From positions 1-36,192 of the forward strand of contig SLBH01000010.1 in assembly GCA_007126415.1 (NCBI GenBank): a stretch of DNA of 36,192 nucleotides. The letters are read 5' to 3'. Position 1 is the stretch's first letter, and each line of letters starts with the position of its first letter. A program made the translations under genes and the position numbers. This DNA comes from Spirochaetales bacterium (lineage in GTDB: Bacteria > Spirochaetota > Spirochaetia > DSM-27196 > SLAA01). Positions 14,427-15,836 of the stretch are shown here, in pieces. The notes below the pieces were generated by a model. It had not been told where the DNA came from. It worked only from the letters and a program-made list of their open reading frames with translations, and ran no database searches.

Positions 14427-15836
14427 ATGATGCGATCGCTGTACTCCGGTGTCTCCGGGCTTCAGAATCACCAGACAAGAATGGACGTGATCGGTAACAA
14501 TGTCTCGAACGTCAACACGACCGGATTCAAGCGCGGGCGGGTGAACTTCCAGGACATGATCTATCAAATGACGCAGGGTCCGGCGCGCCCGCGAGAGCAG
14601 GTTGGGGGTATCAACCCTCAGCAAGTTGGTCTCGGCATGCAGGTGGGTTCGGTGGATACCATCCATACGCAAGGCTCGCTGGAAACCACAGGCGTTCGGA
14701 GCGATCTCGCACTGCAGGGCAACGGCTTCTTCGTGATGCGCGACGGCGACCAGCGGCTCTACACGCGTGACGGCTCGTTCAACGTCGACTCGGAAGGCAT
14801 TCTCGTCAATCCGGCGAACGGCATGCGAGTGCAAGGGTGGCAGGCCGAAACCGAGGACGGCCAAACCGTAATCAACACCGCCGGTCAGATCGGTGACCTG
14901 CAGATCCCGATCGGGGGCAAGGACCCGGCTCAGCAGACCAGCGAGGTGTACCTCGCGAGCAATCTCAACAAGATGACGCCGGTGATTCCCGAGGACGCCG
15001 GCGCCGAGCAGGTGCGCGAGGGGACATGGGTCGTTGAGCAGGATATCTACAACTCCTTCGGCGGTACGCATACCCTGCGCGTAGAGTTCACGCGCGTGCC
15101 CGATGAAGAGAATCAGTGGCTCACTACGGTGCAAATAGACCCCGAGGGCGATGAAGAGGTGGAGCAAAACATCTCGGTCGGCGGGGTAACCAGTGCCGAC
15201 GGGCAGAGTTTCATCCTTGAGTTCGACAACGACGGTACGCTACGGCGGGCTTTTAACCCCGAGGGTGGTATGATGGATACCGATGAGGTGTTCGTGAATC
15301 TCGAGTTTGAGGTCCCCGAAACCTCGATCCCGGAGGACGAGGATACCGGGCTGCCGGGTGAAGTGGTCACGCAAGACTTCAACTTGAATCTCGGCCAGGT
15401 CGGGGCGTTTACCGATTCCATGACACAGTACGCTTCCCAGAGTTCAACGAAGGTGTTCAGCCAGAACGGAAACCCGATGGGGTATCTCGAGGACTATCGC
15501 ATCGACCAGTCGGGAACGATCACCGGCGTGTTCTCGAACGGAACCAACCGTGAGCTCGGCCAGGTGGCACTGGCGTCGTTCACGAACGTAGGCGGTCTCG
15601 AGAAGAGCGGAGAGAACAACTACCGCGAATCAATTAACTCGGGGCTCGCCGATATTACTCCCGCCGGCGTTGCCGGCAAGGGCTCGGTTATTTCCGGCGC
15701 ATTGGAGATGAGCAACGTAGACCTGTCGCAGGAGTTCACCGATATGATCGTAACGCAACGAGGCTTCCAGGCCAACTCGCGCACGATTCAGACGGCGGAC
15801 CAGATGCTTCAGGAGGTCTTAACACTCAAGCGCTAA
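14427..15836 (+). CDS. flgE: Flagellar hook protein FlgE
   Basis: 469 aa. The N-terminus reads [35 protein letters not shown]. The C-terminus reads [43 protein letters not shown]. Confidence 0.95.
   Translation: [469 protein letters not shown]

Follow-up and report, generated by a model that had tools for sequence, protein, structure and literature searches.

The flgE gene on contig SLBH01000010.1 of a Spirochaetales bacterium (assembly GCA_007126415.1) raises the question of whether a spirochaete flagellar hook can still be covalently cross-linked when serine replaces the cysteine that provides the cross-link in Treponema denticola. The window is the whole stretch of 36,192 nucleotides that was analysed, and its FlgE, the hook protein, comes from a haloalkaliphilic spirochaete whose flagella are periplasmic. 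An initial annotation, made from the letters alone, reported that this protein keeps Lys165 and Asn179, has Ser at residue 178 and contains no Cys. It proposed that either the lineage lacks the lysinoalanine cross-link or dehydroalanine is made from Ser by another, probably enzyme-assisted, route. The present comparison indicates that the window FlgE probably carries a serine version (K165...S178-N179-L180...S340) of the self-catalysed lysinoalanine site, in which Ser and Cys are interchangeable and have been switched repeatedly. On this reading a Ser178 hook is routine; it probably still works and is no marker of a spirochaete that has abandoned the cross-link. The gene and the residues of the predicted site are as follows.

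Positions 14427-15836, plus strand: flgE, flagellar hook protein of 469 amino acids, identified by Pfam, NCBIfam, a Protein Data Bank (PDB) match and the AlphaFold2 (AF2) fold.
Positions 14889-14957, plus strand: D1-D2 linker, residues 155-177, lying between Pfam D1 and D2 and carrying Lys165.
Positions 14919-14921, plus strand: Lys165 (AAG), predicted lysinoalanine nucleophile, aligned with T. denticola K165.
Positions 14958-14966, plus strand: Ser178-Asn179-Leu180 (AGC AAT CTC), the "SNL" form of the CNL motif.
Positions 14958-14960, plus strand: Ser178 (AGC), predicted dehydroalanine precursor, aligned with T. denticola residue 178.
Positions 14961-14963, plus strand: Asn179 (AAT).
Positions 14964-14966, plus strand: Leu180 (CTC).
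Positions 15444-15446, plus strand: Ser340 (TCA), placed in the column of T. denticola Thr334 by a MAFFT alignment with T. denticola residues 92-423.

An AAGGGGG ribosome-binding site lies about 9 nt 5' of the start of the open reading frame (ORF). The ORF product contains the Pfam domains Flg_bb_rod, D1 (residues 95-154), FlgE_D2 (residues 179-348) and Flg_bbr_C, and scores 572 bits against the NCBIfam FlgE equivalog NF004241, for which the cut-off is 469. The best PDB match found by phmmer is T. denticola FlgE (6ndx_B, E = 1e-94), and the assignment of the 469-residue product to FlgE was thereby upheld. Lys165, Ser178 and Asn179 were read from the window at the residues where they had been annotated, and the count of Cys in the translation is zero. 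A single A/T transversion separates the AGC of Ser178 from the Cys codon TGC. The catalytic lysine of cross-linking hooks has been assigned to the D1-D2 linker (Lynch, Charon and Crane 2026 preprint, 10.64898/2026.05.22.727228). The protein is strongly acidic (pI 4.25; 65 Asp + Glu versus 29 Lys + Arg) and has only 7 Lys, of which K342 falls in the column of T. denticola K336; a K336A crystal structure (6NDV) exists for the T. denticola protein.

The chain 6ndx_B is the C178A crystal construct, in which chain position n corresponds to residue n + 90. The query aligns with it without gaps over residues 92-193; the site pairs with T. denticola IPIGQKLDAKATTSVNYAANLDK, and the stretch SVNYAANLDK of the C178A construct stands opposite the region of query S178. 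Because this alignment is ungapped, K165, residue 178 and N179 are numbered identically in both proteins. The S178 column was identical in MAFFT alignments with 120 and with 200 homologues, so the supposition that the Ser lies in the Cys178 column proved correct. The FlgE of Turneriella parva (cluster P0123/P0276), a named member of the Leptospirales, likewise has K and S in columns 165 and 178. The column of T. denticola T334, aligned by MAFFT in 121 sequences, is occupied by Ser in 107 and by Thr in 14, giving a hydroxyl group in 121 of 121; it is Ser in 28 of the 29 Cys-type relatives. Ser340 against Thr334 is a conservative difference. In the AF2 model of the window FlgE, most of D1-D2 (residues ~90-420) reaches a predicted local distance difference test score (pLDDT) of about 75-93, while the D0 helices are disordered (pLDDT below 50 at residues 1-87 and 425-469). 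The D1-D2 part of the model was superposed on the cross-linked T. denticola dimer 6NDX with a template modelling (TM) score of 0.82-0.88 and a root-mean-square deviation of 2.4-3.6 Å, and on the dehydroalanine intermediate 6NDT with a TM score of 0.88 (both target-normalised). The predicted model thus confirms the FlgE fold.

Two sets of relatives were compared at this site. The first contains 121 sequences (the query and its nearest 120 clusters at 90% identity), and the second contains 200 distinct spirochaete homologues with 51-98% identity to the query. In the first set, 92 sequences have Ser at column 178 and 29 have Cys, with no third residue, and both K165 and N179 are present in 121/121. 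All 92 Ser-type sequences have zero Cys, and the Cys-type sequences usually have that single Cys. The same column in the second set contains only Ser (102) and Cys (98). Within the Spirochaetaceae, Ser predominates in a large branch of free-living organisms that includes Alkalispirochaeta, Spirochaeta africana, S. dissipatitropha, the S. lutea cluster and many metagenome-assembled genomes (MAGs). The named Ser-type organisms are Alkalispirochaeta americana, S. africana, S. dissipatitropha, the S. lutea cluster and Turneriella parva, whereas the FlgE of S. thermophila is Cys-type. Ser178 in the window FlgE is therefore real but ordinary, being common to most of its closest relatives, and Ser-type FlgE is documented in Leptospira and Brevinema (PMC10691653). 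It does not constitute the anomaly for which it had been taken, and the earlier interpretation was only partly right, since the variant is both documented and in the majority among the relatives.

The codons at column 178 show how the two residues are exchanged. The ten closest loci (L001-L010, from species-representative genomes) all encode Ser, with AGC in six and AGT in four, and AGY is the codon of most lineages, being found in the window and in 14 relatives. The codon is TCC in S. africana (L081) and S. dissipatitropha (L086) and TCG in L087. The loci of Marispirochaeta, Sediminispirochaeta and Treponema encode Cys (TGT in 45 and TGC in 25). The AGY and TCN codons are two mutations apart, Cys TGY is one step from each, and Cys is the sole non-Ser residue seen at this column in the relatives. 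It follows that the point mutations by which Ser and Cys were exchanged differed from lineage to lineage. A Fitch parsimony count on a neighbour-joining tree of the 200 distinct sequences, built with column 178 masked, gave at least nine Cys/Ser switches, and Cys-type proteins are about 80% identical to their Ser-type neighbours. The toggling between Cys and Ser, with both Ser codon families in use, supports on evolutionary grounds a role for either residue as a dehydroalanine precursor. The mutual information of every alignment column with the state of residue 178 was also calculated, and no compensating site for the C/S switches was found. The top co-varying columns (e.g. 300-310, 315, 247, 281 and 356) were rejected as clade markers, being unchanged in five local C-versus-S contrasts.

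The residues around the switch are unequally constrained. Lys165 is present in 200/200 homologues and is never Arg; the other six Lys columns are mostly conserved, and five of the six accept Arg. K165, S178 and N179 do not vary in any Ser-type sequence, even where identity with the query falls to 51%, and linker positions 164, 169, 170, 172, 173 and 175 are free to vary among the 200 homologues. Retention of Asn179, which the initial annotation had pointed out, turned out to be non-diagnostic, because N179-L180 is near-universal in FlgE (149/151 and 143/151 diverse representatives, respectively) and occurs in Salmonella FlgE too. Column 178 in diverse FlgE is mostly occupied by other residues (G 83, N 14 and K 13 of 151), and Lys is found at column 165 in only about a quarter of 150 diverse representatives. 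In these 150 proteins Lys165 accompanies Ser178 in 10 of 11 cases, Cys178 in 19 of 19 and any other residue in 10 of 120; the Fisher p values of the association are 6.5e-9 for Ser178 and 1.7e-16 for Cys178, with phylogeny not corrected for. The restriction of column 178 to Cys and Ser, together with the unvarying K165, speaks for a Ser178 that still works as a dehydroalanine precursor and against a loss of the cross-link. Such a pattern is expected for a Ser178 precursor with a primary-amine partner and would be unexpected had the cross-link been lost.

Formation of lysinoalanine from Ser has been described for other hooks. In native flagella and recombinant protein of L. interrogans, FlgE Ser179 is linked to Lys145, Lys148 or Lys166 (Lynch et al. 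2023, PMC10691653). The recombinant Leptospira protein cross-links autocatalytically in vitro at pH 10-11 without other factors, and T. denticola FlgE C178S is also reported to form cross-linked complexes in vitro (PMC10691653). A Ser178 FlgE is thus a hook protein of a documented cross-linking kind, and the literature had already settled the choice posed by the initial annotation in favour of dehydroalanine from Ser. In the mechanism proposed for the window protein, the FlgE subunits would, by homology, assemble into the hook first. Ser178, at the boundary between the D1-D2 linker and D2, would then lose water by beta-elimination to give dehydroalanine, to which Lys165 in the D1-D2 linker of an adjacent subunit would add through its epsilon-amine (aza-Michael addition) to form lysinoalanine. 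The resulting covalent Lys-Ala bridge would stiffen the hook. In T. denticola the Thr334 hydroxyl activates the dehydroalanine (10.64898/2026.05.22.727228), polarising it through the backbone amide of Asn179; the hydroxyl of Ser340 may take this role. A dedicated enzyme would not be required in principle.

Several points weigh against this reading. The support for cross-linking by Ser-type FlgE of the Spirochaetaceae is drawn from sequence and homology, and Ser is a far poorer leaving-group precursor than Cys. The conservation argument uses phylogenetically non-independent sequences and a gene tree built rapidly by neighbour joining. Being a monomer, the AF2 model is blind to the inter-subunit geometry of K165 and S178, and the query has Ser rather than Thr in the T334 column, as do most Cys-type relatives. 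In vitro the Ser reaction is slower and markedly less reactive and needs pH 10-11, and possible help from unknown cellular factors in vivo has been suggested (PMC10691653). The corresponding explanation is that the K165-S178 lysinoalanine does form, but only after Ser178 has been activated by a cellular factor, through phosphorylation, esterification or a lanthipeptide-like lyase. Neutrophilic Ser-type lineages such as Leptospira, Turneriella and the S. lutea cluster (S. lutea being a neutrophile) gain nothing from a high periplasmic pH, which speaks for such a helper, and Lynch et al. raised the idea themselves (PMC10691653). Recombinant Leptospira FlgE and T. denticola C178S nevertheless cross-link without any other protein (PMC10691653). 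Scans of the complete 36-kb operon against Pfam and NCBIfam found no kinase, dehydratase or lyase; they returned mostly canonical flagellar genes, with chemotaxis-related and chaperone genes and three ORFs near the 3' end that lack a confident family, none of which adjoins flgE. Ser-type and Cys-type relatives do not differ in their flgD-flgE-flbD-motA neighbourhood, and the Cys/Ser switch separates proteins of about 80% identity, with no other site in FlgE co-varying. The part of the earlier proposal in which dehydroalanine derives from Ser is probably right, and this has been demonstrated in Leptospira; the part that called for an enzyme is not strictly needed in vitro (PMC10691653), and a helper is regarded as unlikely in the present case.

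Loss of the cross-link, with Ser178 as a small polar placeholder in a hook held together non-covalently as in Salmonella, was the other branch of the original proposal. It is favoured by the lack of Cys in the window FlgE, by the intrinsic unreactivity of Ser to beta-elimination at neutral pH and by the fact that the Ser-type site of this clade is known from sequence alone. An unconstrained residue 178 should, however, drift to Gly, Asn, Lys or Ala, and K165 to Arg, Thr or Ser, whereas 102/102 Ser-type sequences keep both S178 and K165. The association of Lys165 with Ser178 in diverse FlgE is as tight as that with Cys178. The Ser-type hooks of Leptospira, moreover, are cross-linked in vivo (PMC10691653). 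The strict conservation of K165 and of Cys or Ser at 178 disfavours the loss of the cross-link, which is considered quite improbable. An assembly or sequencing error for TGC, suggested by the single base that separates it from AGC, was refuted by the AGC or AGT codons of ten independent closest genomes and by the absence of Cys from all 92 Ser-type sequences; its probability is negligible. The serine version of the self-catalysed site is preferred over these explanations.

Ser-type FlgE had been noted in the literature for Leptospira and Brevinema, and the present comparison extends it to sites that are widespread in free-living Spirochaetaceae. It adds that column 178 toggles between Cys and Ser only, and that Lys165 is not replaced even by Arg. 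These results are relevant to drug or inhibitor work aimed at the Cys-dependent step. They also bear on a question raised by Lynch et al., namely how Ser is converted in vivo despite its poor reactivity. The FlgE proteins of alkaliphiles and the natural C/S pairs would be convenient test proteins.

The habitat of the organism offers a possible link to the chemistry. The closest FlgE genes belong to the Spirochaetaceae MAGs B1Sed10_122m (98%) and CSSed10_65m (90%), and the next relatives are other soda-lake MAGs (72-75%) and A. americana (73%). The labels B1Sed10 and CSSed10 denote sediments of Bitter-1 and Cock Soda Lake, with a pH of 10 and 70-400 g/L salt (Vavourakis et al. 2018, PMC6146748). 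The habitat pH of about 10 of the nearest relatives coincides with the pH of the Ser route in vitro (10-11), and most of the Ser-type isolates and MAGs that have names are alkaliphiles or come from soda lakes. The Alkalispirochaeta/soda-lake clade, whose member A. americana is an alkaliphile, uses AGY at column 178. TCC is the codon in the clade of S. africana and S. dissipatitropha, two species described as alkaliphiles (PMC4511686). It is tentatively conceivable, although doubtful, that a soda-lake periplasm near pH 10 lets the Ser route run spontaneously and that an alkaline habitat favoured the replacement of Cys by Ser more than once. This idea is opposed by the occurrence of Ser in the S. 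lutea cluster and Turneriella in this comparison, and in Leptospira and Brevinema (PMC10691653). If the idea were true, cells in an alkaline habitat could do without Cys, which is more reactive but prone to oxidation, and the soda-lake lineages would be a natural system for a helper-free Ser route. Natural C/S pairs of about 80% identity (Cys-type P0029 versus Ser-type P0033, 81%) would then allow the chemistry to be dissected. The four opposing groups, namely the S. lutea cluster, Turneriella, Leptospira and Brevinema, are not known to be alkaliphiles.

The window has a G+C content of 60.4% and is occupied by a single long plus-strand operon. It starts with dprA, an xerC-like gene, hslV and hslU, followed by flgB, flgC, fliE, fliF, fliG, fliH, fliI and fliJ. 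The middle contains flbB, fliK, flgD, flgE, flbD, motA, motB, fliL, fliM and fliY, and the later part contains fliO, fliP, fliQ, fliR, flhB, flhA, flhF and flhG. An unknown ORF, a sigma factor gene, FapA, two further ORFs, an Hsp70-like gene and a DnaJ-domain gene form the end. The features outside flgE are as follows.

Positions 215-4204, plus strand: dprA, XerC-like tyrosine recombinase, hslV and hslU, directly upstream of flgB.
Positions 11266-11889, plus strand: flbB, periplasmic-type flagella collar protein of 207 amino acids (NCBIfam NF047368 collar_FlbB, 230 bits, cut-off 110).
Positions 11905-13959, plus strand: fliK, hook-length control protein of 684 amino acids (Pfam Flg_hook, E = 1e-20).
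Positions 13978-14412, plus strand: flgD, hook cap protein (Pfam FlgD, E = 1e-23).
Positions 15857-16057, plus strand: flbD (Pfam FlbD).
Positions 16061-16846, plus strand: motA (Pfam MotA_ExbB).
Positions 16871-17617, plus strand: motB (Pfam MotB_plug/OmpA).
Positions 28703-29563, plus strand: ORF of 286 amino acids between flhG and the sigma factor gene, with no Pfam or NCBIfam match.
Positions 32322-32660, plus strand: ORF of 112 amino acids with no Pfam or NCBIfam match.
Positions 32667-33281, plus strand: ORF of 204 amino acids with weak matches to DUF6115 and to the SpiroCoCo C-terminus (27.6 bits, cut-off 125).

The set of dprA, XerC-like, hslV and hslU genes is arranged as it is upstream of the flgB operon of Borrelia burgdorferi. 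The flbB gene, between fliJ and fliK, has no significant Pfam match and is a marker of spirochaete-type flagella. The presence of FlbB and the Spirochaetaceae/Alkalispirochaeta relatives establish that the organism is a spirochaete; the possibility that it is not, which the initial annotation had left as a ground for refutation, is thereby closed. The centre of FliK is a low-complexity region of about 460 residues (Ala 19%, Arg 16.5% and Glu 14%), and its family match is confined to the C-terminal Flg_hook domain (571-645) of the protein. Long spurious antisense ORFs run over fliK because of the high G+C content. The longest fliQ ORF (22125-22442, plus strand, GTG start) overlaps the end of fliP (21382-22173, plus strand) by 49 nt; its Pfam match begins at residue 22, so the actual start probably lies downstream of the GTG at 22125. 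The tail of the operon (30368-35896, plus strand) encodes FapA (647 amino acids, Jag_N), a 574-residue Hsp70-like protein and a DnaJ-domain/HEAT-repeat protein, and the chaperone-like Hsp70/DnaJ pair is apparently co-oriented with the flagellar genes.

The window FlgE can be compared with several known hooks. The non-cross-linking FlgE of Salmonella and Campylobacter share its fold and the N-L at 179-180 but differ in having a residue other than Lys at column 165 and Ile or Ala at column 178. Outside the spirochaetes, a search signature of Lys + CNL/SNL + Thr was used, with SNL + Lys + Thr as a candidate motif; it led to a confirmed CNL FlgE in the Synergistota (Thermanaerovibrio acidaminovorans) and to 282 SNL candidates (10.64898/2026.05.22.727228). 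These non-spirochaete CNL and SNL proteins resemble the window FlgE in the Lys of the D1-D2 linker, the [C/S]NL motif and the Thr/Ser hydroxyl, whereas they belong to external flagella and often have extra D3/D4 domains. That screen left out the spirochaetes, and the Ser-type Spirochaetaceae are hence unlisted in it (10.64898/2026.05.22.727228). Brevinema andersonii FlgE has K165, S178 and T328 (PMC10691653), so that the numbering of K165 and S178 is identical to that of the window protein; it comes from a different order (Brevinematales), and cross-linking there is a sequence-only prediction.

The FlgE of L. interrogans is likewise of the Ser type in its [C/S]NL motif, keeps the canonical Lys (K166 in L. 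interrogans and K165 in the window) and comes from a spirochaete with periplasmic flagella. Leptospirales FlgE is only about 50% identical to the window protein, however, and Spirochaetaceae FlgE is much closer. Leptospira also forms several cross-link isoforms through K145 and K148 besides K166. The window FlgE has the Ser donor of this heterogeneous type of cross-linking but lacks the extra acceptor lysines, as its residues 143-148 are E D G Q T V; Lys is also not among the listed top residues at columns 143-148 in the Ser-type relatives. A single, Treponema-like linkage through K165 is therefore to be expected in the window protein.

T. denticola FlgE (6NDX and 6NDT) shares with the window protein the D1-D2 fold, K165, N179, L180, the hydroxyl in the T334 column and the gene order. 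It differs in its donor, which is Cys with H2S as the leaving group, whereas water would leave from the Ser of the window protein, and a lower reactivity is expected for the latter; T. denticola C178S is the engineered equivalent of this donor. The window combines the features of a spirochaete-type cross-linking FlgE: a D0-D1-D2 orthologue in a flagellar operon, the linker Lys, SNL and the hydroxyl in the T334 column. Its host also has the periplasmic flagella, indicated by FlbB and by the relatives, that are usual for such proteins, though not strictly required since the Synergistota example.

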